Shown here piece by piece: positions 27,483-61,100 of a stretch of 64,000 nucleotides of DNA. Location of the stretch: NCBI GenBank assembly GCA_965205905.1, contig CBDBHZ010000013.1, positions 209,571 to 273,570 on the forward strand, in the 5' to 3' direction. Every line of letters begins with the position of its first letter. Position 1 is the first letter of the stretch. A program made the translations under genes and the position numbers. Origin of the DNA: Alphaproteobacteria bacterium (GTDB lineage Bacteria; Pseudomonadota; Alphaproteobacteria; JABAAW01; JAHZMA01). The notes beneath the pieces are model-generated. The model was not told the origin of the DNA. It searched no databases and was given only the letters and a program-made list of their open reading frames with translations.

Positions 27483-27660
27483 CTAGTATTAAGCACAGCG
27501 GGGGGGTTATCGTGGGTTGCACCTTATGAGTATTACACACAAGCGGGGGTTGTTAAGGGGGCATTCGCAAGGGAGCGGACGTAAGTCTCGCGACCGAGAA
27601 GCGAATTCGCGCCCCCTTAAATAATAAAGCCCAACTCCGCCCGCCCTATGTGCTACTCTG
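27483..27660. repeat. MITE-like GC/G-tract palindromic repeat copy (reverse orientation)
   Basis: Contains the core gcggacgtaagtctcgcgaccg and terminal cccccc/gggggg tracts. Confidence 0.7.
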
Positions 27661-27943
27661 CATGGGAACAACGAAATCAGGGTAAAACAATACATTTAGC
27701 ACTTATTTTAACCATAAATCCGAACAAACAAAAAGTTATCCACAGGTTTACTACTTTTTCACAAAGTGTTCTTGATTTGTGTAATAAACTTATGGTAGAT
27801 TAGAAATAAGCCCATTGCGCCCCTCAATAACCGAACCGAATGGCAACCAAAAAACTTCACTATTTTTAATTTCCGCATCATGCGTTTGCGGATAACGTAA
27901 CCTTATGCCCAACTTATGGACATTTTATATAGGAGGACTCATT

Positions 27944-29584
27944 ATGAGTGCTATTGACGTCTTAACCCAAAAACTATCAGGCAGTAACAAGCAAAAAGCA
28001 TGTGATTGTTGCGAAAAACTTGCCAAACGGCAATCTGTCTCACCCAATATCGTGAAAGATGCTTATCAGCAAATCAACAAAAGCGCGCCCAATATCACCG
28101 ATAGGCAGGCATGCGATATGCTGATAACCCTATTCGTTAAGGGCGAGGCTTTATCTACCAAAGAAGAGGAAATCTTAAAGTTTCTTAATCAATCAACCAA
28201 AACCATCACCCAAATATCGCAACCCATGCAGTTTGCGCCCATTTTTAACATTGTGCAGAAAACCAAAAACCAACCAAATTATTTCCGCCCATTAGGTAAG
28301 GTGAATCAGTTTTTCAATCATTTAAGCAACCAAGCCGATTTTAAGAAACTGCTAACGGCGGTCGGCTCTTTATCTCTCACCAAGGAAGAAATCACTGAAT
28401 TGATGGCGGCGCAATATCAGCCAAACTATAGCCCTTCATCACGCACCGATGGGTTAATTAAAGCCATTGATAGAGCGGGAAAGCTTTCGGCACTGCCCGA
28501 AAAAGCGTTTCATAATCTCACCACCCATATCGGCAAAAAGTTTAAGTTTAGCGATATTAATATCAAAAATTTGCAGACTATAGAAAGTGGCAATAAAGGC
28601 AACGATGAATTAAATAATGCACTTTACAACGCCTTTCAGGATAAAAGCAATATTCAATATATGCCGAAAAAAACCAGAGAGCTGTTGCAACCCATCCATA
28701 ATGAGATTCTGAAAGCAAAGATGGAGGATTACACTAAAACTATTGGCACACTTAATGTTTCGCCATCGGTGCATACGCGATTACATGGTTATCAGGCTTT
28801 GTTAATCGATATAGAACAGGGCAAGAAAAAGCCTAGTACGGCTGACCTTGAAAAACTTAATTTGCTATATAATGAATTAAAAAGCCTTGGCAAGCTTGAT
28901 GCCATGCCGAACCGCACGCAAGCCTATCTAGAAAATTACCGTCTGGAACAAGATTTGAAGAAGAAAGCCCCGTTGAATGTTGGTAAATTGCTGGAAAAAT
29001 TAAAACGCGGTGAGACATTGGGAGTTTTTCAAGCTTTTTATCTCAGCAGTCATGCGCCAGATGAGCTTAAAAAACACTGGAAAAATGAAAAAAACCAAAA
29101 ACAATTAGAAACATTATCAAAAGATGTGCGTGATAAGGCGGCAGAAATCAAGAATTTAGATAAATCTGCATTGCTTGAGAGTTTCGAGAAAATCATCGAG
29201 CAAATTCGTGCCGAGCAAGGCAGGGCATCTAACCGCAGATTCTATGTTCCTGCATTGGGCGTTTATATCCAACTTACTGGAAATTTTATGGAATTGCGCT
29301 TCAGGAATAAAGATTTTGGCGGAGTATATAAAGAGACGATGAAGCAAGTAATTAAAGATTCAAAAGATAAAAGTTTGGATGAAATTACCAAAAATCTGCA
29401 ACAATTCAAACTTGTCTATCACAGAGGTTTGGATTTTACGGGTGCCAATCTTAAAACCGATGGCAGTGTGCGCTATATCAAGGATAGTGAGGTTAACCCG
29501 ACAATTTCAAAGGTGTTGGATGTTTCAACGAAAACAACAAGAAGTGGCAAAAAAACCAAAGCCATCACTATTTTAGAAATATAA
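27944..29584 (+). CDS. hypothetical protein (546 aa) with no recognisable domain
   Basis: AGGAGG Shine-Dalgarno 7 nt upstream of the ATG at 27944. The ORF is AT-rich and its stop overlaps the next start. Confidence 0.5.
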   Translation: MSAIDVLTQKLSGSNKQKACDCCEKLAKRQSVSPNIVKDAYQQINKSAPNITDRQACDMLITLFVKGEALSTKEEEILKFLNQSTKTITQISQPMQFAPIFNIVQKTKNQPNYFRPLGKVNQFFNHLSNQADFKKLLTAVGSLSLTKEEITELMAAQYQPNYSPSSRTDGLIKAIDRAGKLSALPEKAFHNLTTHIGKKFKFSDINIKNLQTIESGNKGNDELNNALYNAFQDKSNIQYMPKKTRELLQPIHNEILKAKMEDYTKTIGTLNVSPSVHTRLHGYQALLIDIEQGKKKPSTADLEKLNLLYNELKSLGKLDAMPNRTQAYLENYRLEQDLKKKAPLNVGKLLEKLKRGETLGVFQAFYLSSHAPDELKKHWKNEKNQKQLETLSKDVRDKAAEIKNLDKSALLESFEKIIEQIRAEQGRASNRRFYVPALGVYIQLTGNFMELRFRNKDFGGVYKETMKQVIKDSKDKSLDEITKNLQQFKLVYHRGLDFTGANLKTDGSVRYIKDSEVNPTISKVLDVSTKTTRSGKKTKAITILEI

Positions 29585-30264
29585 TGAAAATAACTGATAA
29601 GATGCGGTTAACCAGTTTTAGGCATCTCTCTCAATCCTTTGTTGTAAAAGGGCAAATCATCAGTAGCACCCATAAAATTGGCTCTGTTATGAAAGATGAT
29701 GGCACAAATGAACATTCCCATATTGAACAAAGAATTGTTGATTTTGCCAAAGTAAGAGAAGCAGTAGGCGCAAATAATAAAGAAATCATTAATGATGCCA
29801 TCATCAATTACCTCAACACACATATTGAAAATAAATGGAAGGAGAGACGAAAAGGTGAGTTTAAGCAATCTGAATTTCTAAAAACAATCAATCCCATGTC
29901 GAATATTGGTGAGAAAGATTTTGTTGGTCTATTTGCGCCATCTAGCAATATTGCCAATCAAATCCGCATCTATGCCAAAAAAGATTGGGATGAACGCGCT
30001 AGTAATATTATCAAAGCCAATAATGCCAACACTGTTGACGAAATTTATAAGGCAATTCATAGTGCCACCTTGCGTGATATACTCACCCTAAAAGCCATGA
30101 TTGATGTGCTATTAAGAATGAAATTGATGTTAGAAACAGTTGGTGAAAAAACTGATTTCTTAAACAAGACCATTCAAAAAGCGCAAAAAACGAAACTGGA
30201 TTTAGAGGATTCTTTTGAAAAAATATTTAAAAACATGAAAATCAAATTCATTGAACAAAAATAA
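29584..30264 (+). CDS. hypothetical protein (226 aa), translationally coupled to the upstream ORF
   Basis: ATAATGA stop/start overlap and an AT-rich sequence. Confidence 0.5.
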   Translation: MKITDKMRLTSFRHLSQSFVVKGQIISSTHKIGSVMKDDGTNEHSHIEQRIVDFAKVREAVGANNKEIINDAIINYLNTHIENKWKERRKGEFKQSEFLKTINPMSNIGEKDFVGLFAPSSNIANQIRIYAKKDWDERASNIIKANNANTVDEIYKAIHSATLRDILTLKAMIDVLLRMKLMLETVGEKTDFLNKTIQKAQKTKLDLEDSFEKIFKNMKIKFIEQK

Positions 30265-30302
30265 AATTTGACAAATTTTTTCCTTTCAACTAAGATGGTA
30301 AG

Positions 30303-30867
30303 ATGAAATATAAAGCATCTTACCATACTTTTTTCACTGTTAGCTATTCTAACATACGTTGTGATATTGCCAGTAAAAAATATTAATGCAACTGACGCTG
30401 AAAAAGCTGATGTGCAACATTTATTTTTTAAAACTTTTTTGGACATGACATATTATAGTCTTGGGCTGAATGATAATATGGATATTGCAAAAGAAATTCT
30501 AAAATTAGAAGATTTAATCGCGCAAGGCGCCAACCCAAATAAAAAATTTGTATTCCCTAGTGACAGTGATGGAGAAAGTTTGGTTACACCTATATCTTAT
30601 ATATTTACGACATGTCGTAATGATCATTACATAGAGGATGCTGGTGGTAAAAATTTTTATTTAGAAATTATAAAATTATTGATTGATAATGGCATAGAGT
30701 GGAATGCTAAAATTTATTACGAAAACGATGATGGCACTTCAGGGTCATATACCATTGCCGATAGAATCAGATGGCTAGAAGAAAATCCGAGCAACAAACC
30801 AGAATGTATCGAAGCGCTAGCTTATGTCAAAACCCACCTCAAAGAAAACAACATCATCATTGAATAA
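30303..30867 (+). pseudogene. secreted short ankyrin-repeat-like protein, paralog 1 (N-terminal frameshift)
   Basis: Conserved promoter and hairpin upstream. The ATG at 30303 is followed by a 1-bp insertion (aaatATaaag versus aaatTaaag). The remaining ORF 30361..30867 retains the ANK-like core and the PECIEALAYVKTHLKENNIIIE tail. Confidence 0.55.
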
Positions 30868-30914
30868 TAAAACCTCGCGGTTGCTCAACACAAAAACCGT
30901 GCGTGTCGCGATAC

Positions 30915-31082
30915 ATTAATATATGGTGGGCTTTGCGGAGTTGGTTTATATATCAAGGGGGGTGCGAACGCGCTTTATCGGTCGCGAGACTTACGTCCGC
31001 TTCCTTGCGCTTTCGGTTTGCCCTTGCACCAATGGCGGGCAAACCTCACCCTTAATAATCCCCCCGCTGTGTTTAATACTGG
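30915..31082. repeat. MITE-like repeat copy
   Basis: atatatggtgggctttgcgg...gcgaacgcgctttatcggtcgcgagacttacgtccgc...ccccccgctgtgtttaatact. Confidence 0.7.
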
Positions 31083-31161
31083 CGGTGGAGTGTATCGCCC
31101 CATACCCCCACGAACAAAAATAAAGTTTGACAAATTTTTTCTTTTCAACTAATATGGTAGG

Positions 31162-31795
31162 ATGAAATTAAAGCATCTTACCATATCTTTTTTAACATTC
31201 GCTATTCTATCATATGTTGTATTTATGGTGATAGAAAATAATGCTGTAATAGAAGCTGAAAAAATGGCAGAAGCTAGAAAAATTGAAAAAGCTCTGATAG
31301 CTGAAAAAATGATAGAAGCTAGAAAAATTGAAAAAGCTAATGTGCAAAATTTATTTGATAGACTTTTTACAGAAACGATACGGTATACTTATGGGCTTGA
31401 TTATGATACCGATATTCCAAAAGCAATTTTAAAATTAGAAAATTTAATTGCACAGGGTGCCAATCCAAATAAAAGAATCATACACGCCGTGGATGGTAGT
31501 GGTTATGTGGATACACCTATATCTTATACTTTTCTTGCATGCAATAATGATAGTTATATAGATGATGCTGATGGTAGAAATTTTTATTTAGAAATTATAA
31601 AGTTATTGATTGATAATGGTGTGGATTGGAATGCTAAAAATTATTATGAGAGCGAAGATACTTCAGGAACAACAAACTATTGCTGACACGCTCAAAAGAA
31701 TGGAAGATGAAGCTGAAAAACGTAACCCAGAATGTATCGAAGTGCTAGCTTATGTCAAAAACCACCTCAAAGAAAATAACATCATCATCGAATAA
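31162..31795 (+). pseudogene. secreted short ankyrin-repeat-like protein, paralog 2 (internal frameshift near 31610-31686)
   Basis: Signal anchor, an EARKIEKA repeat insertion, the ANK-like core, then a frame switch into the conserved C-terminus. Confidence 0.55.
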
Positions 31796-31873
31796 TAACC
31801 GATTATTGGGGTTATTCGCAATCAGTGGTAACAGATATTTGACAAACCTAATTCTATAACTTAATATGGTAAG

Positions 31874-32479
31874 ATGAGAGTAAAATACCATCTTACCATA
31901 TTTTTTTCACTATTCGCTATTCTAGCATATGTTGTATTATTGCCAGTCAAGAATATTAATGCAACTGAAGCTAGAAAAGCTAAGGCAATAGAAGCTGAGA
32001 GAATTGCAAAGGCTAGAGAAGCTGATGTGCAAACTTTTTATGAAATTTTTTTAGATATAACGCAAAGTGGTTATGGAATTGATTCTGATATGTATACTGC
32101 AGAAACAATTTCAAGGTTAGAAACTTTAATTGCACAGGGTGTCAACCCAAACAGGAGTTTTGAACTCCCTAGTGACGGTTATGGAAAAGGCTTTGTTACA
32201 CCTATATCTCATATACTTCTTACATGCACTAATGATAGGTACCTAAATGACGCTGATGATAGAAATTTTTATTTAGAGATTATAAAATTATTGATTGATA
32301 GCGGTGTGAAATGGAATGCTAAAAATTCTTATGATGGCTATCATTATGGTGAATCAGGTGAATCAACCATTGCCGATAGCCTAAGATGGACAGAAGAGAA
32401 CGCGCATAAACCAGACTGTCTCGAAGCGATAGATTATGTCAAAACCCACCTCAAAGAAAATAACATCACGCTAGAATAA
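31874..32479 (+). CDS. secreted short ankyrin-repeat-like protein, paralog 3
   Basis: N-terminal hydrophobic anchor, the ANK-like LIAQGVNPN...TPISHILLTC...EIIKLLIDSGVKWNAKN, and a conserved C-terminus. Confidence 0.6.
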   Translation: MRVKYHLTIFFSLFAILAYVVLLPVKNINATEARKAKAIEAERIAKAREADVQTFYEIFLDITQSGYGIDSDMYTAETISRLETLIAQGVNPNRSFELPSDGYGKGFVTPISHILLTCTNDRYLNDADDRNFYLEIIKLLIDSGVKWNAKNSYDGYHYGESGESTIADSLRWTEENAHKPDCLEAIDYVKTHLKENNITLE

Positions 32480-32525
32480 TAAAACCTCGCGGTTACTCAA
32501 CACAAAAACCGTGCGTTTCTCATCA

Positions 32526-32690
32526 CATTAATATATGGGGGCTTTGCGGTTTAGGTTTTATATATCAAGGGGGGGGGCGAACGCATTAATTTATGGGGGG
32601 CTTTGCGGCATACGCTTTGGCGGTTATGTCCGTAGGACAACCGCCACGCGATGACGCCCCCCATACCCCCCACCGCTGTGTTTAATACTC
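32526..32690. repeat. MITE-like repeat copy (variant internal module, G10 tract)
   Basis: Shares termini with the other copies. Confidence 0.6.
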
Positions 32691-32729
32691 ATATCTAGCT
32701 TGCCTTGATAATTCTTACCTAAATAAAAT

Positions 32730-32790
32730 TTGACAAATTTTTTCCTATAACTTAATATGGTAAGATGAAATTAAAGCATCTTACCATATT
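32730..32790 (+). promoter_or_regulatory. conserved promoter (TTGACA-17-TAATAT) plus a start-codon hairpin of ank paralog 4. The same module sits at 30268-30330, 31127-31195 and 31839-31905.
   Basis: Perfect -35 hexamer, 17-bp spacer and a -10 six to seven nt before the ATG. The inverted repeat atggtaagATG...catcttaccat encloses the start codon. Confidence 0.6.
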
Positions 32791-45867: not shown

Positions 45868-45961
45868 GTAGTTTTTGCACTATTTTATAATGCAATTAAA
45901 GATTGCAAATAATACTTTTTCATATATTATATCATGAATATTGCTGATAGGAGGAATAGGA

Positions 45962-46612
45962 ATGAATAAAGATAATGAAACAGACTCAAATAAAGAAACA
46001 GCGAAACCCAAAGGCATCATGAGCAAATTACGTTCAATCTTTGATTTTATCAAGCAAGCATATATAGTTGCTAAGCAAACATTTGCATTTATCAATAAAA
46101 TTGGCGATATTATCGGCACGGTTAGAAAAATCATCATGGGGCTGAATCGAACGCTGGTGATTGTAACTTTGTTTATTTTTGTTAGCACAGCGGGCTTTCA
46201 AGGCTATGAAGAATATAAAAGAATAAGAAGACTTATTGAAAAAGTTGAAGGTTATATTGATGAATATAAGGCAAAGGCAGACCAAATAGAGAGGGATATT
46301 GAAAATTTGCGCGATGATTTTCGTAAATTTGAAATAGAATTCAAAGGCAAAGCCCGTGCCGCCAAGCAAAAATTGGAAGATGACATAGATGCCACCAAGC
46401 AAGAGTTGAAAGATAAAGCCGATGCCACCAAGCAGGAATTAAAGGCAAAAGAACAAGAATTGAAAGATAAAGCCGATGCCACCAAGCAGGAATTGAAGGA
46501 TAAAGAACAAGAATTACAGGATAAAGAGAGGGAATTGAGTGATAAGCTTCAAAAAAATAAAGATAAATTAGAAGAAGATAAGAAAAAGTTAAAGAAACTG
46601 CTTGATAGATAG
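45962..46612 (+). CDS. membrane-anchored coiled-coil protein with tandem 18-aa (54-bp) repeats
   Basis: AGGAGG RBS before the ATG at 45962, one TM helix (LVIVTLFIFVSTAGF), then KDKADATKQELKAKEQEL repeats encoded by near-identical 54-bp DNA units at about 46417-46530. Confidence 0.55.
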   Translation: MNKDNETDSNKETAKPKGIMSKLRSIFDFIKQAYIVAKQTFAFINKIGDIIGTVRKIIMGLNRTLVIVTLFIFVSTAGFQGYEEYKRIRRLIEKVEGYIDEYKAKADQIERDIENLRDDFRKFEIEFKGKARAAKQKLEDDIDATKQELKDKADATKQELKAKEQELKDKADATKQELKDKEQELQDKERELSDKLQKNKDKLEEDKKKLKKLLDR

Positions 46613-46718
46613 CCAATTATTTAATGAGGGTAACTTTAAAAAAACGCTTGCATTTTATCTCAATTCAGTTAAAGAATAAACTATCATTATTGGAGGCATT
46701 CTTGTAGGGAGTTTAGTC

Positions 46719-49306: not shown

Positions 49307-49330
49307 AGCACCGCAACCCACGCCATCGGC

Positions 49331-49425
49331 AGTATTGAACACAGCGGGGGGGGGGCGTCATCGCGAGCTGATTGGCGCACCGCCAGAATCAGCAAAGCGT
49401 ATGTCGCAAAGCCCCCCATATTATT
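49331..49425. repeat. MITE-like repeat copy (short, G10 tract)
   Basis: Termini only. Confidence 0.5.
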
Positions 49426-49632
49426 ATGTATCGCAAAACGCTAGATGCTAATGCTGACGAATCTTGAAACACGCACCGCCTATGTGCTACACACCGCCGT
49501 TATTCCACACGTCTGAAAAAAATTAAGATGATGCGACTATAAAGGGTTAGGGTAAAATGCAAATATTCTTTAGATTATTTAGTCTATAATGAAAATATCT
49601 CTTTACATCAAATGTAATGTTGTCTTACACTA

Positions 49633-50319
49633 ATGCAGTGGTGTTGGTTTATTGAAAGGTTACTTACTTTTATGTGGGATAGAAAAAAAATATTTGAAAG
49701 ACTGATAGGCTATATTATTTTTATGCCTGATACAAATAATTTTTTAAAAAACCTAATTAGTAAAAATTGGATACTTATATCTTGTGTTCTTTTTGGTGGG
49801 CTTTTCTATTTTTTATTTTTCTCTTACTTTGATGTATCACCGCACCCCATACTTAATTCTAAAATAAAGTATGAAAATGATATAAATGTTAATGATTTAG
49901 TCACCATTCTTTTAACTGCCGTTACAGTTGTTTTAACAGCAGTAGCTGTTATTATAACGCTTTTAGCTATTTGGGGATATAAAAATATCAAAAAAGAATC
50001 AATTGATAAATCGAGTGAAAAATCAATTGAACGTGTTGAAAATAGCATGAGAGAAGGTGGTGAATTACACAAACTTTTAACAAGTAGAATAAAAACAGAA
50101 TTTACAGAATATGCTCCAATTCAAGATTACATTGATGGTATTGTGAGTAGAGCTGTAGAGACTAAAATCGAAGAACATAATGCTAAATTTGAAGAAAACA
50201 TTTATGATGCTATCATGGAAAACGTAGAAGATAAAATTACAGAACATGATAGTATTATTGATAATAAAATTGCTAAGGCAATAGAAGAACGCCACCATGA
50301 TGGTAATATAGACTATTAA
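49633..50319 (+). CDS. two-TM membrane protein with an acidic coiled-coil C-terminus (island gene 1)
   Basis: Very AT-rich ORF ending 13 bp upstream of the ImmA-like gene. Confidence 0.45.
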   Translation: MQWCWFIERLLTFMWDRKKIFERLIGYIIFMPDTNNFLKNLISKNWILISCVLFGGLFYFLFFSYFDVSPHPILNSKIKYENDINVNDLVTILLTAVTVVLTAVAVIITLLAIWGYKNIKKESIDKSSEKSIERVENSMREGGELHKLLTSRIKTEFTEYAPIQDYIDGIVSRAVETKIEEHNAKFEENIYDAIMENVEDKITEHDSIIDNKIAKAIEERHHDGNIDY

Positions 50320-50331
50320 GAGATATAAAAA

Positions 50332-50847
50332 ATGACAGAAATTAAAAAAAATCACTCTAAAGAATGGAATAATTTGCCTGAGAAAACACAGGACATCATT
50401 AAGAAATATCAAAAGGTTGATATGCCAAAAGTTCCTGTAGGTAAAATTGCACAAGAGTTGGGATTAATAGTAAAATCTTCTTCTTTACCTGTCCGTATAT
50501 CAGGTGAAATACGCCCAGATGGAAATGAATTTATTATCCGCATCAATAGGCATGAAGCGAAACAACGTCAACGCTTTACCTTAGCCCATGAAATATCTCA
50601 CTATTTGTTACATAGAGATAAAATTAACGATGGTATCGAAGATAATGTGCTATACCGTTCTCAACTTAGCAATATTCAAGAACATGAAGCCAATCGCCTT
50701 GCCGCTGACATTCTTATGCCATGGGAAATTATAGAAGCGCAGTTAGAAGGAAAAAACAAAGATGATGAAAATACTATTGAAGAAATAGCCAGTGTTATGG
50801 AAATTTCTACTGTTGCCCTAAGAATTAGGTTAGGTATTAAAATATAA
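50332..50847 (+). CDS. ImmA/IrrE-family zinc metallopeptidase (island gene 2)
   Basis: HEISHYLLH (HEXXH) preceded by the typical ImmA/IrrE N-terminal region; 171 aa. Confidence 0.7.
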   Translation: MTEIKKNHSKEWNNLPEKTQDIIKKYQKVDMPKVPVGKIAQELGLIVKSSSLPVRISGEIRPDGNEFIIRINRHEAKQRQRFTLAHEISHYLLHRDKINDGIEDNVLYRSQLSNIQEHEANRLAADILMPWEIIEAQLEGKNKDDENTIEEIASVMEISTVALRIRLGIKI

Positions 50848-50849
50848 AG

Positions 50850-51968
50850 ATGGTGGATTTCAAAAATATTCCATATATACCTATTTTAACAACACGACCT
50901 GCAGAGCTTACTGCTTTACGCGAGTTACCTACTAGTGATAAAAAGAAATTGATGCCTGCAATACAATTACGACCATGGCTAACTTCAAAAGAATTTGATA
51001 ACACAATTGCTAAAATAGACGAAGCCTATGGCAATAATAGAGAATGGATAAGCAATCTTGATGAATATTATGAAGAACCACTGCCAAACCCAGAACAACC
51101 ATCCAAAGACACAAGACCTGCAATAACAACTTTTAAATCGCTTTTAGAACCTGCAAATGGTTATGAGAATTGGTGTGCTTTTGTTGAAAAACACCCTAAT
51201 ATGATACCATGTGTGCAATTAAGCGCAATAGAACAACTTGAAGAACAACTAAAAAAACTCTTAAATTTAAACCGTGGTGTTGTTTTCCATCTCGATGGAA
51301 AACATAAAGAAAAATTACAAGAATATAAAAATAACTTTGATATAATCTTTGAAATTCTTAAGAAAAACCAAGCAGCTTCAAATATTCTTTTTATTATTGA
51401 TTTTAAAACAATTACAAACACACAAGATATTTTAATCCTATTCGGTTATTGGAACGACCTTATTACGAAAATATTGAAAAATTCTTATAGCATTGCAATT
51501 TCAGGGACAAGTTTTCCATCAAGCTTTACAGATGCGCCACTTAGTCTGGCAATAAAAGAAAGAAAAATATATGAACTTATAAATAATGATAATAATGGTA
51601 ATATTATTTATAGCGACAGGGGTAGCACACGTATCAATGAGAAAAGGCAACAAGGTGGTAGCAAACCAATACCGCGTATAGATTATCCCGTTAAAAATGA
51701 CTGGCATTTCTTTAGAGAAAATAAAGAAACTAATTATAATACGCTTGCCAAACAAGCCATTGAATCTAGTAATTGGGATAATAAACTATTCCTTTGGGGA
51801 ACAGAATTAATTAAAGCTACTGCTAGTTCCAATAAATTGTTAGATATAATCAGTAGCCCAGTAAAAGCTACTGCTGTAAGAATTAATATCCACCTGCATA
51901 TGCAACTATTTTATAACGATGATGATAGTAATGCCTATTTAGAGACGGATGATGATTGGGAAGATTAG
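50850..51968 (+). CDS. hypothetical 372-aa protein (island gene 3), translationally coupled to the ImmA-like gene
   Basis: 3-bp intergenic gap and AT-rich sequence. I recognise no domain. It should be compared with the Pfam Beta_protein family. Confidence 0.45.
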   Translation: MVDFKNIPYIPILTTRPAELTALRELPTSDKKKLMPAIQLRPWLTSKEFDNTIAKIDEAYGNNREWISNLDEYYEEPLPNPEQPSKDTRPAITTFKSLLEPANGYENWCAFVEKHPNMIPCVQLSAIEQLEEQLKKLLNLNRGVVFHLDGKHKEKLQEYKNNFDIIFEILKKNQAASNILFIIDFKTITNTQDILILFGYWNDLITKILKNSYSIAISGTSFPSSFTDAPLSLAIKERKIYELINNDNNGNIIYSDRGSTRINEKRQQGGSKPIPRIDYPVKNDWHFFRENKETNYNTLAKQAIESSNWDNKLFLWGTELIKATASSNKLLDIISSPVKATAVRINIHLHMQLFYNDDDSNAYLETDDDWED

Positions 51969-51972
51969 AAAG

Positions 51973-52710
51973 TTATTTTTCGCCAATAGAAATTGGGTTG
52001 CCAAAAATATTTTCTTTTGATTGTAGTGAAAGATAATACATATACATATCATCACATTCTTGTTCCTGATTAACGACTCTTGAATGATATGGATATTTTC
52101 TTAATGAATTTATATCGTCTATATTAATATCTCTTGACACAAGCGCTTCTTTAACCTGATTTGTGATTTCGCGGTGTTGATTTTTTAATTTTTGTAAAAC
52201 ATGTTGACGTAAAATTGTTGCACTTAAACTCATAGCTAAATTCTGTAACTCTAACCTTTTACAATGACTCGCTTTAATTTTATTTTTGGACAAAATCGTT
52301 TTTAAGTCTGCAACAGTGAGCATTTTTATCAAAATGGTTTTATTCAATAATTTTTCTGATTTGCCTTTTCTTATTACCTTAATTCCCTTTTCAGGGCAAA
52401 ACTCCCATACAGCAACTTTTTGAGGTGTGGTATTTAATACATGTTCAGAATGGCAAGGCGCACATATGATATGAAGCTTATCACAAAATTTTAGAAAATC
52501 TTCAACTTGCCCTGATAGACGAGATAAATTATCTGCCTCTGTTTTTATCTCAAAAAAGTATAAAGAATTATTGATAAGAGCAATATCAATCCGCCTTGCA
52601 AAAGAATCAACAACCAATTCATTTGCAATAAAATTATCATTTGTATGATTCTTTTCCAGCAAATATTGAATAAGTTTTGCTTTTACCAGTTTTTCGTGTC
52701 CATTTCTCAT
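51973..52710 (-). CDS. PD-(D/E)xK nuclease-like protein (island gene 4, convergent)
   Basis: ELVVDS...RIDIALINNSLYFFEIK fits an E/D...D...ExK restriction-endonuclease-fold motif. Confidence 0.45.
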   Translation of the reverse strand: MRNGHEKLVKAKLIQYLLEKNHTNDNFIANELVVDSFARRIDIALINNSLYFFEIKTEADNLSRLSGQVEDFLKFCDKLHIICAPCHSEHVLNTTPQKVAVWEFCPEKGIKVIRKGKSEKLLNKTILIKMLTVADLKTILSKNKIKASHCKRLELQNLAMSLSATILRQHVLQKLKNQHREITNQVKEALVSRDINIDDINSLRKYPYHSRVVNQEQECDDMYMYYLSLQSKENIFGNPISIGEK

Positions 52711-52761
52711 AGTCTAACTATATAGCATTAAAACTATTAATGTAACAAAAAAAATTCTACC

Positions 52762-52789
52762 TTGCATTTCCACCGCTAACCCTATATAC
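52762..52789 (+). promoter_or_regulatory. candidate sigma70-type promoter (TTGCAT-15/16-TATATA) facing a gene-free region
   Basis: Near-consensus hexamers. Downstream there are only two intrinsic terminators and no ORF. Confidence 0.3.
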
Positions 52790-53020
52790 TTACATCATCG
52801 TTTGAAAAGATTTCGAGCGTGGGGCTTAGTAACCTCTTACATAATTCGGTTGCATCAATCGATATTGACGCTTTTTTCGTTACATTGTAATTTGCGTCAA
52901 GGATGCACCGTTCTCAGCTTGGCTGGGAAGCGGTGCTATATGTCCAAGCGCCTTGTTTTTTAATATTGTGCCAAAAAGCGTCGCGCCGTTTTTAATTATG
53001 TAAGCGGTTACTAATTCCCA

Positions 53021-53048
53021 GCTACTAGAGTTTTCTAGTAGCTTTTTT
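53021..53048 (+). terminator. intrinsic terminator hairpin with T-tract
   Basis: gctactagag-ttttc-tagtagc followed by tttttt. Confidence 0.5.
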
Positions 53049-53128
53049 GTTGATGCCTTGAAATTCTGTGCATTGATGAAACGCTTATTTGGTTAACAAC
53101 CGCTAATACAATAAAAACGGCGCGACTT

Positions 53129-53163
53129 CACCCCTCATTATTTTTGATGAGGGGTGTTTTTTT
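53129..53163 (+). terminator. intrinsic terminator hairpin with T-tract
   Basis: cacccctcat-tatttttg-atgaggggtg followed by ttttttt. Confidence 0.6.
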
Positions 53164-53251
53164 GATGGCGGTGTTTGTTGCAGGTGTATAATACATAGGG
53201 CGGTGCATGGGTCGAGATTCGTCAACACAAAAACCATGCCTGCCTCCACAC

Positions 53252-53395
53252 ATTAATTATATGGGGGGCTTTGCGGAGTCGTTTTATGTATCAAGGGGGG
53301 TGCGAACGCGCTTTATCGGTCGCGAGACTTACGTCCGCTTCCTTGCGCATACCCCCCTTGATAATCCCCCCGCCGTACCAAATACTGGCGGTGGT
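53252..53395. repeat. MITE-like repeat copy
   Basis: Canonical core. Confidence 0.7.
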
Positions 53396-53439
53396 GAGTG
53401 TCTCGGTTACACAACACGCAGGCGGTGCGTTTCTCTCAA

Positions 53440-53908: not shown

Positions 53909-54286
53909 TCAGGAAGCTTGCTTATATTCTTTAAATATGTCTTTTATCATCTCGGCATATCGGGGGGTTTGTTTAGATATAAGAACAATATTTTTATATG
54001 GCATATTCATATCAAATAATTTTCCAAATGATTCATCTACAAAAGGAAAGAGATAGCCATCTGTGTCATCTAAATCAATAATCAGTTTCTCACCCTTTTT
54101 GAGGTTTTTCAGCGCAGGAATTAGAACATTATCTCTAAATTCTTCGCCCGAATTACGCCCTTGCCAACTGAAACGCGGACCGGGTGAAGAGCTAAAATCT
54201 TTAGCAATTTTGATAGTGTGAGGCATTTTTTTACCCTCCTGATTGATAATAATATTTAATTTACCAAAATTGAGAGTATTTTGCAA
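53909..54286 (-). CDS. DUF4325-like (STAS-like) small protein
   Basis: 125 aa with the pattern ...GEKLIIDLDDTDGYLFPFVDESFGKL, like the DUF4325 STAS-like family. Confidence 0.4.
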   Translation of the reverse strand: MQNTLNFGKLNIIINQEGKKMPHTIKIAKDFSSSPGPRFSWQGRNSGEEFRDNVLIPALKNLKKGEKLIIDLDDTDGYLFPFVDESFGKLFDMNMPYKNIVLISKQTPRYAEMIKDIFKEYKQAS

Positions 54287-54293
54287 GACATTA

Positions 54294-54495
54294 TATTATA
54301 TGGGGGGCTTTGCGGTTTAGGTTTTATCTATCAAGGGGGGTGCGCTTTCTCAACAGCGTTTATTGTATCAAGGGGGGGGCGGTCGCGCTTCTCGATGCGC
54401 GCTTGTCAAATTTATGTCCGTTGGACAATTTGCCAAGCAGACGCCTCTTGCGCGAACCCCCCTTGATAATCCCCCCGCCGTACCAAATACTAGCG
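54294..54495. repeat. MITE-like repeat copy (variant module, G8 tract)
   Basis: Termini plus the internal module shared with 33375..33610. Confidence 0.65.
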
Positions 54496-54611
54496 ATAGT
54501 GTAAATTGCTGTTACACAACACTCTGGCATTGCGTATCACGAAACTCTTGCGTGAATAAATCCATTATGCTACACTGATAGGCTATTTTATTTATCAGCA
54601 GGAGTTTTACC

Positions 54612-55640
54612 ATGACCACTTCACCAGACTCATACGCCATTGCCGTATTAGGCGCGACAGGTAATGTTGGGCGCGAGATGCTTGCCATTTTGGCAGAGCG
54701 CGATTTTCCAATATCGCAAGCATACGCATTGGCATCGCAAAAATCAGTCGGACGGCAGGTGAGTTTTGGCGATAAAGACCTCGACATCCAAGATGCCGAT
54801 AGCTTCGACTATTCCAAAGTGCGCTTGGTATTCTCATCAGCGGGCGCGGCAATTTCTGCCAAACTTGCCCCAAAAATCACGGGTGCAGGTGCGGTGCTGA
54901 TTGATAACACCTCGCAATTTCGTATGGATGAAGATGTGCCACTTATTGTGCCAGAGGTGAATCCGCACGCGCTTAATAATTACAAAGCGCGCAATATCAT
55001 CGCCAATCCAAATTGTTCCACCATTCAAATGGTGCTGGCATTAAAGCCAATCCACGATGCTGTGCCAATCAAACGGGTGGTGGTTTCTACCTATCAGTCG
55101 GTTTCGGGTGGCGGCAAATCCGCAATGGATGAATTGTTCAATCAAACGCGCGGAATTTACGTCAATGATTCCCCAACGCGTGAGCATTTCACCAAGCAGA
55201 TTGCGTTTAATGTGATACCGCATATTGATAGTTTCATGGATGATGGTGCCACCAAAGAAGAGTGGAAAATGAAAGTTGAGACCCAAAAAATCATGGAAGC
55301 CGATATTGCAGTCCATGCCAACTGTGTGCGGGTGCCTGTGTTTATCGGGCATGGCGAGATGGTGAATATTGAGTTGACCGCGCCGATGAGCGACACCCAA
55401 GCAACTGAAATTCTGATGGAAACTGAAGGCTTGGTGGTGATTGACCATCGCGCTGATGAGGGCTATCCAACCCCTATTGAAATTGCGGGCGAAGATGGCG
55501 TTTATATCAGCCGTATCCGCGAAGATGATACCGTGCCATACGGGCTTTCAATGTGGGTTGTGGGCGATAATCTCCGCAAAGGGGCTGCGTTAAATGCGGT
55601 GCAGATTGCCGAAAAAATGCTAGAAATGAAACTGCTATGA
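54612..55640 (+). CDS. asd: aspartate-semialdehyde dehydrogenase
   Basis: 342 aa with VLGATGNVG and the NCSTI active-site Cys. Confidence 0.9.
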   Translation: MTTSPDSYAIAVLGATGNVGREMLAILAERDFPISQAYALASQKSVGRQVSFGDKDLDIQDADSFDYSKVRLVFSSAGAAISAKLAPKITGAGAVLIDNTSQFRMDEDVPLIVPEVNPHALNNYKARNIIANPNCSTIQMVLALKPIHDAVPIKRVVVSTYQSVSGGGKSAMDELFNQTRGIYVNDSPTREHFTKQIAFNVIPHIDSFMDDGATKEEWKMKVETQKIMEADIAVHANCVRVPVFIGHGEMVNIELTAPMSDTQATEILMETEGLVVIDHRADEGYPTPIEIAGEDGVYISRIREDDTVPYGLSMWVVGDNLRKGAALNAVQIAEKMLEMKLL

Positions 55641-56840
55641 GCGATGATATTGCAGACAATATTATCCCATGTTATGGGCGGTTTCCGCTACGTTTTGTGC
55701 GGGGCAAGGGTGCCTATATCTTCACCGAAGATGACACCCCCTATCTGGATTTTGCCTCTGGCATTGCGGTGAATGCGCTGGGGCATAGCGATAAGGGTTT
55801 GTGCGATGCGCTCCGCAGTCAAATTGATACTATATGGCATTGCTCGAATCTCTATCATATTCCACAACAGCAAGAATTAGCCACCATGCTGGCAGAAAAA
55901 TCATTTGCTGACCGCGTGTTTTTCTGCAATTCAGGGCTTGAAGCCAACGAAGCCATGATAAAATGCGCGCGCCGTTACCATTATGAACGTGGCGATAAAA
56001 ACCGCAATGTGATACTCACCTTAAGCGGTGCGTTTCATGGCAGGTCGCTGGCAACATTGGCGGCAACGGGCAACCCCACAATATCTTGAGGGTATGGGTC
56101 CGACTCCGCAAGGCTTTAAGCAGGTGAAACGTGATGATGTCGCCACAGTGGCAGCCGCGATTGATGATAAAACTGCCGCCATTTTGGTTGAACCCGTGCA
56201 GGGTGAGGGCGGGCTATATCCGTTATTGAACAATGATTATTTGAAGCAGTTACGAAGCCTTGCTGATAGGTCTGGTATTTTGTTACTGTTTGATGAGGTG
56301 CAATGCGGTGTTGCGCGCACGGGTAAATTATGGGCGCATCAACATGCGGGCATCAGTCCTGATGGTATGAGTTTAGGCAAAGGGCTAGGCGGTGGTTTTC
56401 CAGTGGGCGCGTTTTTGGCAACCGAGAAACTAGGCACAGCGTTAAGCGCAGGCACACATGGCAACACATTTGGCGGTAATTATCTGGCGATGACGGTGGC
56501 GAAACATATTATCAGCACAGTTAGCAAGCCCGATTTTTTAGGCAATGTGGTGAAGCAGGGGCAGGATTTAAGCGCAAAGTTACAGCAATTATGCCAAAGC
56601 TTTCCCGATATGATTACCGAAATTCGGGGCATGGGGCTGATGCTTGGTATCAGGCTTGCCGATGATTATAGCAATAAAGATTTGGTGGCGGGCTTGCATC
56701 AGCAACAGATGCTGACTGTGCCAGCGGGCGATAATGTGGTGCGGTTACTGCCACCATTAAATATCGGCTCTGATGTGCTAGATGTGGCGGAACAGAAACT
56801 TGGTAACGGATTAAAGGCGTTACAAAAAGGAGGTGCATAA
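55637..56840 (+). pseudogene. argD: acetylornithine aminotransferase, split by a frameshift near 56028-56089
   Basis: N-terminal ORF 55637..56089 and C-terminal ORF 56028..56840 (LLFDEVQCGVARTGKLWA with the PLP lysine region) together cover ArgD. Confidence 0.75.
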
Positions 56841-57946: not shown

Positions 57947-57959
57947 AATAGATTTACTA

Positions 57960-58172
57960 TTGTTTTTATCATTGAGGATACAAATTATGACTAAGCTTCA
58001 ACAGTCAATTGCTGATAATTCCCATCAGGAAACCTATGAAGAGCCTGATGAGTTTGATTTAGAGCTCATTAAACTTGCGGATGAAGTTATAGCACGGAAT
58101 GAAAAGCGATTCACCCATAATGAAGTGATGAAAGAGCTAGGTCCAGAATTTTACGAAAAATATAAGAATTGA
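57960..58172 (+). CDS. putative antitoxin of a type II toxin-antitoxin pair
   Basis: 70-aa acidic protein whose stop overlaps the start of the RelE/ParE-like gene. Confidence 0.4.
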   Translation: MFLSLRIQIMTKLQQSIADNSHQETYEEPDEFDLELIKLADEVIARNEKRFTHNEVMKELGPEFYEKYKN

Positions 58173-58457
58173 GTGATGACAGAGGCTATTTACTCGGTTT
58201 CTGCTAAAAAGTCATTAAAGAAAATCCCGCAAAGCTATCAAAATAAAATTATTAAAGCCATTGAAGTTGATTTGAAAGCAAATCCTTTTCAAAATAGTGT
58301 TTTAATAAATTCTCAAGCTTATAGAAGACATAAAAAGAATATCGGAAACTATAGAATCATCTATATAATTCTAGATGATGAAAAAATTGATATTTTAGAT
58401 ATTTTACTCATTGGGCATCGCAAGGATATTTATCAAAAAATGAAGCGCCTGCCGTAA
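58173..58457 (+). CDS. RelE/ParE-family type II toxin
   Basis: NYRIIYIILDDEKIDILDILLIGHRKDIY is the characteristic C-terminal RelE/ParE pattern. Confidence 0.6.
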   Translation: MMTEAIYSVSAKKSLKKIPQSYQNKIIKAIEVDLKANPFQNSVLINSQAYRRHKKNIGNYRIIYIILDDEKIDILDILLIGHRKDIYQKMKRLP

Positions 58458-58469
58458 TATTCTCTGGAA

Positions 58470-58790
58470 TTGCAACTTGGTTGCAATTCTAGCGGATATT
58501 AATTGCGGAGGGGTTACAAGGGGCTTCCTTGCGTCAGCAAGGTCGTAAAGCCCCTTGCTAGCGAATTTTAGCTTTGCTAAAATTCTAGCGTATAATTAAT
58601 GAACGGAGGGGGTATAGGGGGCGTCTTGCCGATAAGGCAAGTCGTAAAGCCCCTTGCTAGCGAATTTTAGCTTTGCTAAAATTCTAGCGTATAATTAATG
58701 AACGGAGGGGGTATAGGGGGCGTCTTGCCGATAAGGCAAGTCGTAAAGCCCCCTACTAGCGAATTTTAGCTTTGCTAAAATTCTAGCGAA
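58470..58790. repeat. tandem array (about 3 units of about 96 bp) of a palindromic element (gctagcgaattttagctttgctaaaattctagcg core)
   Basis: Three near-identical units are visible by eye. The same palindrome occurs after tRNA-Phe (36660-36700). Confidence 0.7.
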
Positions 58791-60843
58791 TGTAACGTGC
58801 CCCGAACGCGCCTATATAGGTCTTGCTTGTGCCTTCAGTTAGCTTAAATGTGCCACCTGCTTCTTGTGCATCTGCGCCATAAAGCTTCATCACGGCTGTG
58901 CCATCGCTAAGATTAGCGTTACTCGTATCACCCCTAAACCATTTATGGTGGGGGTCATAATCCAAATCAGCATCAAAATCGAGGTCAGCTGCATCGCTTG
59001 AGGAAGTGCCAGTAAAGCCGTATGCAATGAACTGACTTGAAGAGATAGACGGCAATGATGTTTTGCGTGTGCCTGTAACCGCAAGAGTAGCAGAAGCATT
59101 CTCAAAATTAGCTACGATGGCTACCGTGCCACGCGTTAACATGGTGGTGCTACCTTCTGTGTAAAAACCATAGCTTTTGCCGTTAAAAGTGGCATTGCCA
59201 GTTCTTGGTCTATCATTGGTGGCTAAGCCTGTTGAAAAAACGCCAAAATCGCTGCCTTTTTTCCAAATACCAAGCGTCTGATATTGCCAATCTGTTGGGG
59301 TAATAGTGCCGCCGCCGCCGCCTACCTTTTCATCATCATGCAGCGCCAGCCAATCTGATGAGCCTGCTGATGTGTGATGAACACGTAAATCACCCCCTAC
59401 TTGGTCATCATCATCACCAATATGGAACCTAGTCGACGTAGGTCCGTTACTATCAAAAGTGCCAATATCGGTGTCAGTGCCATCAATCGCCTTTGATTTC
59501 AGAATAACACTATAAGATAAATTAGAGGCTAATTGCGTTATTCTTGCTGTTTGGCTGGTAATCTCACCTGCATTGCTAACACCAATCGCGTTATATGTTT
59601 TTGCAGAAATGCCGCTTCTGTTTAATTTATAATGCGTCAAAAAAGTCGCTGTGTCTGTATCCCCGAATATATACACGATGGGTGGAGGTATTCTGTTTGC
59701 CACCGAATACACCGTAATAATATTGCTCGCTGGCACTATCTATCATTGCAAATGTGCCACCCAATTCATCAGCCGCATTATCGCCTGTGCCATAAAAACG
59801 GGCTTCGGCAAAGCCTTCCATAGCATGCCACTGAAACAGTGCCGTTAATATTATTTTTTGCGGGTTCATAATTTAATTCGGCGGTAAAATCAAGATAAGA
59901 TAAAGGAAACTGATTCACGCAAGGATAAGTCACTACATTATCAAAGCATTGTATTGTATTTAAGGTTTTCAAGCCTATTGTGCGGGCAGAAAAATCAATA
60001 GTTGCTGTTAAGTCAAATGCAGGAGTGTAAGACAATGCTTCACTGTTGTAAACGCCATTACCTGTACCCTTAAACATAATCGTTTCAGTCATTTCGCCTA
60101 TCTTGGCATCTGATGTTTCTATGCCTGCAATGGCAAAACCGATATAGGAATTAAAATTATCAGTTGTCGTGGTTATATCATCAGGCAGAGATGCCGTAAA
60201 GGTGGCCCAAGCGCCAACTATCATATAGTTTGTTGTAAATTCAAACGCATCATCAAAGTAGCTGGTTGATTCTCTTGCTAGCACTTATAAAACTTAGAGG
60301 ATTATTGCTATTATCAATTTTTCCTACAAATTCTAGCTCATCACTGGTTTCAGTTAGGGTTAGAATTTGTTCACCATCATATGTGGCTGTATATGTTTGG
60401 TCAGCAACATAAAGGCTTGTTGAATAAATATATCCGTCTGTATCAAATGTTAGCGATAGACGGGGCGCAGTGATTTTGGAAATAATAATAGCATCTTCTG
60501 TAATATGGTTTTCATTCCATGATTCTGTGGGGTCAGAACGGTTAAAGGTTTGATTGAGATTGAATTGCACGGCAATAGCATCTAACACAAGCGTTTTCTT
60601 CTCATTCTCTTTTGCAGCTGCCGATGCCTCGTCAAGAGAATTATAAGTCAGATGTTCTATTGGCGGAATATCAGTATTTGTTGGAATATCATCACCGATA
60701 CTAATGCTATAAACCCTCACAATATCACCAACCTTAGCATCATTACCCGCTGGGCTATCATTGCTTGATGAAGAGCTAGTGCATGCCGCCAATAAAATGG
60801 CGCATGACAGCGATAATAAGAGGTTTTTACTTGAATGTAACAT
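58783..60843 (-). pseudogene. degraded third member of the multi-lobed TbpB-like lipoprotein family (four or more overlapping ORF fragments)
   Basis: N-terminal fragment with lipobox LLAAC|T at 60843. The fragments 59778..60284, 59627..59869 and 58783..59736 carry the FYG...GGTF...YIG.FGA barrel signatures. Confidence 0.6.
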
Positions 60844-60929
60844 CGGTTTTCTCCTTAACGATATGGAATATATAGATTAACACATAAACACTCTATTAGA
60901 AAAATAATAAAGAGTCAAGATTGATTATT

Positions 60930-61100
60930 TAAGGGGGTGAGGGTTGCGACTCCCTCAGTGTTACACACAGCGGTGGGGGTATGGGGGGCGTCTTGGCAAG
61001 AGAGCGGACGTAAGTCTCGCGACCGAAGCCAAGTCGCAAAGCCCCCCATATATAATGCAAAGCGCGTTCGCACCCCCCTTGATAATCCCCCCGCTGTGTT
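60930..61100. repeat. MITE-like repeat copy
   Basis: Canonical core. Confidence 0.7.

Follow-up and report, generated by a model that had tools for sequence, protein, structure and literature searches.

Short repeats lodged between bacterial genes are known in several forms. The repetitive extragenic palindromes (REPs) of E. coli stabilise upstream mRNA, while the BOX elements of S. pneumoniae and the Rhizobium-specific intergenic mosaic elements (RIMEs), whose sequences and hosts are unrelated to those treated here, consist of a few short cassettes in variable copy number, the RIMEs furnishing an alphaproteobacterial precedent for intergenic mosaics of large palindromes. REPINs (REP doublets forming hairpins) have conserved ends and a variable spacer which still forms a hairpin, and are found in tandem arrays of up to five (PMC3337134). 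The present analysis concerns a family of hairpin-forming repeats in a 64,000-nucleotide (nt) stretch, hereafter the window, of contig CBDBHZ010000013.1 from an alphaproteobacterial assembly (GCA_965205905.1). These are probably lineage-specific, non-coding, GC-rich palindromic repeats of the REP/REPIN kind, assembled into mosaic clusters like those of the bacterial interspersed mosaic elements (BIMEs), and although their kind is known, the sequence family is new, none having been described before from this lineage.

Anatomy and census of the hairpin units

The basic unit is an imperfect hairpin of ~72 nt with the architecture T-ATCAAGGGGGG-TGCG-R-[6-7 nt stem]-CTTCTCGG-[inner hairpin]-CCTTG-[stem']-A-CCCCCCTTGAT-A. 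A covariance model built for it, R1, which was run on the window, on related loci and on controls, aligns to this one architecture both the above (type-1) units and those with a second terminus type, TATGGGGGGCTTTGCG...ACGCCCCCCATA (the right end also being written CGCCCCCCATA). A G6/C6 stem clamps the unit (TATCAAGGGGGG...CCCCCCTTGATA or TATGGGGGGC...GCCCCCCATA), and across 29 distinct units the TATCAAGGGGGG/CCCCCCTTGATA terminal inverted repeats are invariant or nearly so, extending to 19-21 bp in some copies. The asymmetric internal loops are likewise conserved, with TGCGR and CTTCTCG on the left side and CTTG, as the counterpart of the latter, on the right, and the two inner helices vary freely in sequence with their complementarity always kept. 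The unit is almost always followed by a tail, AAT-CCCCCCGC-YNTRCTCAATAYT-AGCGGWGG-TGCGTGTC, which is predicted to fold on itself; abbreviated as AATCCCCCCGC...CTCAATAYT, it carries a second C-tract, which is retained even in the solo units of the most distant genome (CBDETR01, see below). Long variants of the unit (101 and 127-136 nt) hold larger inner cassettes, and a 44-nt mini-unit devoid of the inner hairpin is seen at 58.5 kb.

Additional modules combine with the unit: a left head, which consists of ACATTAWTATATGGGGGGCTTTGCGG and a linker; a flank module resembling the tail (F); and a perfect palindrome unrelated to the unit (P, GCTAGAATTTTAGCAAAGCTAAAATTCGCTAGC), which in three genomes is placed, usually together with a mini-unit, immediately 3' of tRNA genes. 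Units may stand alone, back-to-back or nested, or form tandem arrays, of 4 x 87 bp in CBDETR01 loci L027/L040 and of 3 x 99 bp at 58.5 kb. A recurrent nested junction is that in which the start of left terminus L2 is followed by a complete type-1 unit. The resulting clusters of units, tails and the second palindrome span 100-370 bp. Hence, the element of 120-250 bp proposed in the initial annotation is a genuine repeat but not a single unit, being rather a cluster of the ~72-nt unit with tail and flank modules.

That these repeats are real is evident from the counts: the 37-nt core has three exact occurrences (starts 30964, 36736 and 53302) and the left terminus eight at <=3 mismatches, with 0 expected for either in dinucleotide-preserving shuffles. 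A self-BLAST of the window recovers all eleven positions that had been named at the outset as repeated intergenic segments (27461-27640, 30877-31100, 32497-32700, 33343-33654, 36647-36822, 42429-42598, 49319-49495, 53183-53433, 54288-54538, 58467-58805 and 60933-61129). They form eleven intergenic clusters on both strands between 27.4 and 61.1 kb, and as had been proposed, they align as a non-coding family with inverted-repeat termini, both orientations and modular variants. Nine of the eleven sites match the covariance model at E<1e-3; the match at 58.5 kb is weak (E 0.006-0.04) and that at 49.3 kb marginal (E 0.8). All units are intergenic, and no conserved open reading frames (ORFs) are present in the units (70-136 nt) or the clusters (100-370 bp). 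The clusters, as read from the sequence of the window, are as follows, with L1 and L2 denoting left termini, R2 a right terminus and H1 to H3 inner hairpins.

27485-27640, minus strand: E1, two tails (~27485-27556), core hairpin unit 27552-27622 and a left-linker remnant, located where putA and an unknown 559-aa gene diverge; covariance model 59.7 bits, E 1.4e-13. In related locus L037, the orthologous gene has an element on this side too, whose stem and inner hairpin differ.
30884-31096, plus strand: E2, F, L1, L2, core unit 30952-31028 (H1 and an extra hairpin), R2 and tail; 29.1 bits. The exact 37-mer core starting at 30964 belongs to it.
32496-32690, plus strand: E3, F, L1, truncated L2, a complete type-1 unit 32593-32664 (inner hairpin GGCGGTTATGTCCGTAGGACAACCGCC) and tail; 26.7 bits, DNA fold -27.9 kcal/mol, z -5.5. 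One unit seems here to be nested within another.
33342-33654, plus strand: E4, F, L1, L2, long core unit 33443-33536 (H2), two tails and F, adjoining tRNA-Ala (33682-33756, minus strand); 28.5 bits. Its positions 33351-33425 are 100% identical to 30892-30966 of E2.
36663-36822, plus strand: E5, palindrome P (36663-36695) directly 3' of tRNA-Phe, core unit 36724-36796 and tail; 75.6 bits, E 8e-18.
42437-42575, minus strand: E6, type-1 unit 42460-42531 (minus) and tail, back-to-back with a plus-strand R2-tail remnant 42542-42575; the hldE stop is 16 nt beyond and tRNA-Asp 150 nt off; 49.9 bits, fold z -4.2.
49325-49495, minus strand: E7, divergent type-1 unit 49350-49417 (stem CATACGC/GCGATG, C10 tract) with an F-like flank, forming the left border of islet B; only 12.2 bits, with termini and stem matching E3; fold z -4.2.
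53197-53433, plus strand: E8, F, L1, L2, core unit 53290-53362 (H1), R2, tail hairpin and F, directly downstream of a candidate non-coding RNA (ncRNA); 75.5 bits, fold z -3.3, in which the outer G-run pairs with the second C-run, in addition to the tail hairpin.
54288-54538, plus strand: E9, L1, truncated L2, long core unit 54367-54467 (H2), R2, tail and an F-like module, upstream of asd (54612-55640); 38.9 bits, fold z -4.1.
58467-58838, minus strand: E10, three tandem repeats of 99 bp, each combining P with a 44-nt mini-unit of type 1; weak covariance matches at 58516-58559 and 58713-58756. The same P plus mini-unit arrangement follows tRNA-Asp in L039 and L093, and is also present in L094.
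60966-61107, minus strand: E11, type-1 unit 60981-61049 (minus) and tail, inverted L2 left end and plus-strand R2-tail, bracketed by imperfect terminal inverted repeats of ~22 bp (AGTRTTANACACAGCGG-G5/6); 43.6 bits.

The distribution of these clusters is uneven: in 1-27 kb there is no credible match to the covariance model and nothing comparable by self-BLAST. This part consists of tightly packed operons, with only 1.4 kb of intergenic DNA in gaps of <=217 bp, while 27.4-64 kb has 8.3 kb of intergenic DNA, ~30% of which (~2.5 kb, or 3.9% of the window) is taken up by the clusters. The clusters explain the assembly breaks and the inflated intergenic spacers in the repeat-rich part. The proposed association with tRNAs is borne out, as a cluster lies within 150 nt of each of the three tRNA genes in the window; the statement that copies border every AT-rich islet was too strong, since elements are missing from the AT-rich stretches at 8-9, 12-15 and 19-21 kb.

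The region 59749-59816, considered as a twelfth copy, was rejected, being a coding repeat of a TbpB-like family. The gene at 54612-55640 might be taken for argC by its Pfam domains, but its homologues are annotated as aspartate-semialdehyde dehydrogenase (asd). The TbpB-like family is itself of note: ORFs of 963 and 1301 aa (12332-15223 and 37851-41756) are built from internal repeats of ~290 aa, each ending in a TbpB_B_D-like beta-barrel motif (GGTF...GYFGA), and a 317-aa relative lies at 58783-59736. Judging from their sequences, these would be multi-domain, TbpB-handle lipoprotein-like proteins, unusual for an alphaproteobacterium. With regard to palindrome P, its left arm, (T)ATCCGCTAGAATT, is found 3' of every tRNA gene examined in three genomes (36655-36700, 33654-33681, 42060-42100, and downstream of tRNA-Asp in L039 and L093), and may be a common tRNA trailer/terminator or a tRNA-3'-associated module. 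The 440-bp spacer at 41757-42200, between the giant TbpB-like ORF and tRNA-Asp, contains a hairpin, CATTCCGACGAAAGTCGGAATC, which is 84% identical to L022 2424-2487, along with an F-like GGCGGAGAGTGCGTGTC; these extra modules indicate that the genome holds more repeat families than the one studied.

Covariation, spread and turnover of the family

The alignment of the 29 distinct units was analysed with RNAalifold and by explicit counting of pairs. The three helices of the unit structure add up to 23 pairs. Double compensatory changes affect 12 of these, and in each of the two inner helices five of the six pairs covary. Paired cells amount to 95.9%, as against 45-54% when the partners are slid by 1-3 columns, and the 92 cells with double changes compare with 29 +/- 4 in shuffles, a value reached in none of 500. 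Nearly all of this covariation is from one Watson-Crick pair to another, including flips from C:G to G:C; among the ~170 cells of helix 2, the only non-Watson-Crick combinations are one G-U and three C-A. The G-U pairs, nearly absent from the hairpin units, are by contrast abundant in the neighbouring ncRNA candidate. Folded as single-stranded DNA, the units reach z-scores of -3.3 to -5.5.

Other features that might be expected of a transcribed element are not apparent. With respect to the flanking genes, the orientation of the elements is unbiased (18 sense, 14 antisense, 12 convergent and 8 divergent), and so is that of the downstream gene (31 vs 32, the gene calls in the related loci being greedy ORF calls). 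None of the seven terminator-like sites in 27.3-37 kb, a region covering five of the eleven clusters, falls within an element, and their number equals the shuffle expectation; the earlier proposal that the copies shape terminators is accordingly not upheld, nor is its counterpart for promoters, the resemblance to a promoter consensus being confined to the unit-tail junction. A scan of the window against Rfam 15 at the gathering threshold returned only the three tRNAs, and relaxed searches of 30.8-33.7 and 52.7-54.6 kb gave matches at chance level only. The unbiased orientation, the rarity of G-U pairs, and the lack of terminators and Rfam matches together place the symmetry of the unit in the DNA or in both strands, and not in a strand-specific transcript. 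A binding site for integration host factor (IHF) was also considered and rejected: of the two halves of the consensus, WATCAA has a look-alike in TATCAA, but TTR is missing.

As regards its spread, a scan for the 19-mer CCCTTRATAATCCCCCCGC across 185,579 species, each represented by one genome, identified 36 loci in the metagenome-assembled genome (MAG) JAHZMA01 ('Alphaproteobacteria bacterium X_S6_bin.7') and five in the MAG CBDETR01. Three isolated matches elsewhere (cyanobacteria, Aeromonas) were attributed to chance, as they do not contain the unit. JAHZMA01 is a sponge-derived genome (Vazella/Haliclona), formerly of the GTDB order JABSOH01 (PMC13393909). Its genes are 84-87% identical to those of the window at the nucleotide level; CBDETR01 is more distant (asd 82% and GltD 74%, protein), and the contigs L093 and L094 of the ENA assembly ERZ25069264 are 88-91% identical to the window (nucleotide). 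The covariance model detects ~70 distinct units in 272 kb of related loci from JAHZMA01 and CBDETR01 and none in 408 kb of unrelated control loci; further units are present in L093 and L094, two contigs of a closer relative. The family is thus not confined to the window. No unit was detected in viral contigs, and literature searches yielded only chance matches for the motif strings and nothing on miniature inverted-repeat transposable elements (MITEs) in sponge symbionts. A metagenome scan for close relatives with the GltD-like protein gave identities of <=59%, on account of which these matches are of no use for the analysis of empty sites. The family, known from two MAGs and the ENA metagenome contigs, is restricted to one clade comprising three related alphaproteobacterial assemblies, at least one of which is sponge-associated.

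Within this clade, the units show both recent copying and considerable age. The median identity of units within JAHZMA01 is ~72%, and the same genome has near-identical dispersed sets of six and four units (96-99%); in the window, the cores of E5 and E8 are 98.6% identical at a distance of 16.5 kb. Both genomes with several sampled units carry near-identical dispersed copies of their own, pairs within a genome reaching >=95%, whereas the best identity between species is 81%. These values, along with two empty sites, support recent copying or homogenisation within lineages, and to this extent the proliferation inferred in the initial annotation stands. A single burst does not: the termini are conserved in a genome whose proteins are only 74-82% identical, and the family is old, with some sites common to several species.

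Modules are reassorted in the course of this turnover. The commonest inner hairpin, in its window version GAGACTTACGTC, is present in six units with three different stems and both terminus types, with GAGGCATAAGCC or GAGGGCAAGCCC taking its place in JAHZMA01 and L093; the identity of H1 across three stems and both terminus types in the window points to such reassortment. A single swapped stem arm is all that separates the duplicated loci L003 and L032 of CBDETR01, which is taken as gene conversion. At orthologous sites, the hldE/tRNA-Asp spacer is empty in JAHZMA01 (L039) and filled in the window and in L093, where the gene-side tail is held in common but the units differ (H2 in L093) and have opposite orientations. 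A three-way alignment places the beginning of E6 just after the hldE stop; the element does not supply the last codons and stop of hldE, the coding sequence being conserved up to its own stop. The spacer upstream of the GltD-like gene, occupied by E11, is empty in L014, and in L094 it has the same tail with a plus-strand H3-type unit. JAHZMA01 too has a cluster upstream of the 559-aa gene, there with a different stem, inner hairpin and upstream neighbour. Three of the four tandem paralogues at 30.3-33.3 kb are followed by a cluster and one by an unrelated 39-nt spacer without a clean insertion boundary.

Copies align to a consensus, but no consistent target-site duplication emerges from them. 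The single candidate is a 5-bp TGACA flanking a 236-bp insert at the hldE/tRNA-Asp site; the other comparisons of empty and filled sites, paralogous and orthologous alike, reveal replacement of sequence rather than clean insertion, and the AT-rich flanks of solo units in CBDETR01 have no consistent duplication either. The paralogues just mentioned (30361-33328) encode small proteins of ~170-200 aa with signal-peptide-like N-termini and no Pfam or PADLOC match; each has a promoter-like TTGACA-N17-TAATAT, and the second is apparently frameshifted near its 3' end.

Islets, mechanism and rival explanations

The clusters coincide with sites of islet gain and loss and with breakpoints of rearrangement. 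In L093 a single element lies upstream of asd, its left flank, head and core matching E8 and its right flank E9, from which it follows that what sets the window apart is islet C together with one element, lying between direct copies. The same contig lacks islets B and C and, as assembled, has the 42.2-48.8 kb segment inverted relative to asd, with the ncRNA between inverted elements. Islets A and B are flanked by inverted clusters with their heads inward. In the relatives, single accessory genes are bracketed by elements, including those for an AAA_15/OLD-like ATPase, a T5orf172 protein and phage Mu Gp45/46-like proteins. The clusters consequently serve as comparative-genomics markers for positions of islet gain, loss and rearrangement in these symbionts. 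Between E7 and E8 (49633-52710) lies an AT-rich islet (32% G+C) which resembles a defence islet and has no equivalent at this position of L093. Its products are an unknown protein of 228 aa, an M78 peptidase (PADLOC capP/RmrA-like), a 'Beta protein' (PADLOC beta / PD-Lambda-2_C-like) and one of 245 aa to which the PADLOC model 'cll' matches with E 2e-49.

Adjacent to this islet lies the above-mentioned ncRNA candidate:

52760-53165, plus strand: ncRNA candidate upstream of E8, outside the repeat family.

It is a multi-copy, structured sequence of ~290 nt, with a conserved promoter-like TTGCAT-N17-TATAAT-like (TATAxT) sequence and an intrinsic terminator, AGCTACTAGAGTTTTCTAGTAGCTTTTTT, to which some copies add a second terminator. 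Copies are located at L002 6296-6575, L009 2223-2506 (minus), L023 1027-1308, L026 419-700, L034 7724-7998 and L093 ~6945-7383 (minus). RNAalifold predicts 89 pairs, 16 with compensatory changes, many G-U pairs and long-range helices; its indels are not multiples of three, and it has no Rfam match. All five readable copies have a co-oriented element downstream of them, the upstream neighbours being differing accessory genes. The candidate offers an independent lead for RNA discovery.

How such units spread can be addressed on the basis of what is conserved in them. The constancy of the clamp and loops, the variable yet complementary stems and the almost obligatory, asymmetric tail suggest a trans-acting protein working on a folded strand, and the retention of the clamp and loop motifs across ~74-82% protein identity predicts a dedicated DNA-binding or cleaving protein. 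Under the REP/REPIN-like reading, units could be copied into new intergenic sites as folded single-stranded DNA, preferentially beside or into existing units. Recognition of the clamp and loops would fall to a trans-acting, structure-specific enzyme, a candidate for which no gene was found in the fragments searched. Units might also be continually homogenised and shuffled as copies undergo gene conversion and template switching with one another, and direct and inverted copies would offer substrates for homologous recombination, by which accessory (defence-type) islets could be inserted or deleted and segments inverted.

A number of points weigh against this reading. No mobilising enzyme was recovered by a crude HUH-motif screen of 344 ORFs from the window and loci combined with Pfam Y1_Tnp, nor by tblastn of ~350 kb with sequences of REP-associated tyrosine transposases (RAYTs) and IS200 TnpA, and a scan of the ~65 ORFs of the window revealed no transposase or integrase; these negatives are weak in that only repeat-flanking genome fragments were searched. 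The unit is one long hairpin instead of a doublet of short palindromes, and no GTAG-type 5' tetranucleotide is evident in the units. De novo transposition was not observed, and gene conversion alone could account for the near-identical dispersed copies. Further, several window genes are split by frameshifts, so that the homopolymer lengths of the G/C tracts may be unreliable and, as the split genes represent frameshift errors or pseudogenes, should not be over-interpreted. Finally, L093 and L094 are low-coverage ('2x') contigs with fragmented genes, for which reason the inversion in L093 could be an assembly error.

Among the alternatives, canonical MITEs would be deletion derivatives of an insertion sequence (IS), mobilised through the binding of a DDE transposase to the terminal inverted repeats, with a short target (TA or 5 bp) duplicated in the process. 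The elements resemble MITEs in being small (<~600 bp), non-coding and multi-copy with empty orthologous sites; their terminal inverted repeats are perfect over 12 bp and longer, at 19-21 bp, in some copies (CTTTCATAGTATCAAGGGGGG...), TA begins and ends both terminus types, and the TGACA repeat surrounds the insert at the hldE/tRNA-Asp site. However, the TA is invariant and so indistinguishable from the terminal inverted repeat itself, the TGACA repeat overlaps a repeat module and brackets extra non-repeat DNA, and replacement rather than clean insertion prevails in the empty/filled comparisons. The 64-kb window and ~290 kb of related loci yielded neither a transposase nor a parent IS with matching ends, and the tandem arrays, asymmetric tail, conserved internal loops and stem covariation would be unexpected if only the ends mattered. 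The MITE label originally given to the elements is hence unproven, and we regard such an origin as unlikely. The idea that they act as a functional RNA or cis-regulatory element (a terminator, mRNA 3'-end stabiliser or promoter carrier) under selection on transcripts appears very unlikely: stable hairpins do lie at gene ends, and the unit-tail junction has an outward-facing, sigma-70-like TTGATA-N16/17-(T)AATACT, but no T-run follows the hairpins, the terminator-like sites of the 27.3-37 kb stretch are all outside the elements, and the unbiased orientation (transcription 18 vs 14, downstream gene 31 vs 32), near-absence of the G-U pairs so frequent in the neighbouring RNA candidate, and lack of Rfam matches all speak against it.

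The islets themselves raise the question of whether the units are structure-specific recombination sites, akin to integron attC or phage att sites, at which a dedicated recombinase exchanges accessory or defence islets. The indel of islet C plus one element between direct copies has a Campbell-type signature, and the inverted, head-inward clusters around islets A and B, the element-bracketed defence-type single genes of the relatives, the attC-like conservation of structure with free stem sequence, and the cluster after each of the four tandem small paralogues, one excepted, fit this picture. Yet no integrase or recombinase was found in the window or beside the islets, orientation is random, units are also found in tandem arrays and separating housekeeping or phage-structural genes, attC and the units have no R/L-box-like conserved core in common, and the same indel is explained by homologous recombination between repeats of 150-250 bp; we consider this quite improbable. 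The same low likelihood attaches to the more specific proposal that the hairpin elements and the adjacent ncRNA form the boundary module of an undescribed islet-exchange platform, in which a structure-specific enzyme (HUH-type or a recombinase) may recognise the clamped hairpin and loops and swap accessory/defence islets, the ncRNA travelling with one end. The E8-islet C-E9 indel, the head-inward clusters, the bracketed defence genes and the pairing of ncRNA and element in five of five copies are compatible with such a platform, though no proof of it.

Some features of the window bear on none of these readings. The ORF at 45902-46636 (223 aa) contains tandem repeats of 33 and 54 bp, and its product is probably a coiled-coil; the region measures ~730 bp versus 27 bp in its JAHZMA01 orthologue (L039), and no hairpin elements are present at its borders. 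The split genes, each consisting of two overlapping or adjacent ORFs, encode 3-dehydroquinate synthase (4826-5998), CoaBC (6585-7720), a short-chain dehydrogenase (21918-22686), an N6/N4 DNA methylase-T5orf172 fusion (22683-23943) and a class-III aminotransferase (55637-56840), and reflect either homopolymer/frameshift errors of the assembly or pseudogenisation in a host-associated genome. FlbT, also among the proteins of the window, confirms that the DNA is alphaproteobacterial.

Comparison with known repeat systems

Compared with the REPs and BIMEs of E. coli and other enterobacteria, the elements have much in common: they are short, GC-rich, imperfect intergenic palindromes, expected in hundreds of copies per genome, which form mosaic clusters with other short motifs, with successive arms alternating, as well as tandem arrays, are tolerated inside operons, and mark hot spots of rearrangement. 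There is, however, no sequence similarity; the unit is ~72 nt, as opposed to ~35 nt for a REP, and is distinguished by its G6/C6 clamp, two inner helices and C-tract tail, the host is an alphaproteobacterium with 43% G+C, and no RAYT was found in the fragments searched here. The REPIN/RAYT systems of Pseudomonas (PMC3337134, PMC3116915) are similar in their length of ~70-110 nt, inverted ends, copy-specific hairpin-forming spacer and tandem arrays, and in forming vertically inherited, lineage-specific populations with near-identical 'master' copies. As in REPs and REPINs, each unit is a foldable extragenic palindrome with a variable, self-complementary interior, in a BIME-like tandem or mosaic arrangement; what is missing is the doublet of short inverted REP palindromes with a 5' GTAG-like tetranucleotide. 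Unlike in REPINs, the ends (ATCAAGGGGGGTGCG / ACCCCCCTTGAT) are not themselves palindromes and conserve no GTAG-like motif, conserved motifs are also present in the internal loops, two terminus types have inner cassettes in common, and no flanking single-copy RAYT was seen in the repeat-flanking fragments.

The Correia elements (Neisseria miniature insertion sequences, NEMIS) are comparable in their 100-160 bp, TA-ending inverted repeats, density at gene ends, promoter-like ends, and presence or absence by strain. They differ in having a uniform 26-bp terminal inverted repeat, an IHF site, TA duplication and processing by RNase III, whereas the present family is mosaic, with stem covariation and no demonstrated duplication. 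The Rickettsia palindromic elements (RPEs) also reside in alphaproteobacteria living with eukaryotes and form dense hairpins of ~100-150 bp, but they are typically in-frame in coding genes, unlike the units here, all of which are intergenic. To integron attC sites the units are akin as folded hairpins with free stem sequence, located downstream of small accessory genes and, in one instance, flanking an islet indel as direct copies; they are unlike them in that neither IntI nor any other integrase was found in the window, R''/R' cores are lacking, the conserved motifs differ, orientation is random, and the units are dispersed genome-wide and arrayed in tandem. The analysis thus adds to the Alphaproteobacteria, from an uncultured lineage, a well-defined REP/BIME-like family with a testable structural consensus. 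While membership in none of the described families is demonstrated, it works like the REP/BIME and REPIN systems and possesses traits common to the Correia, BOX, RIME and RPE elements.

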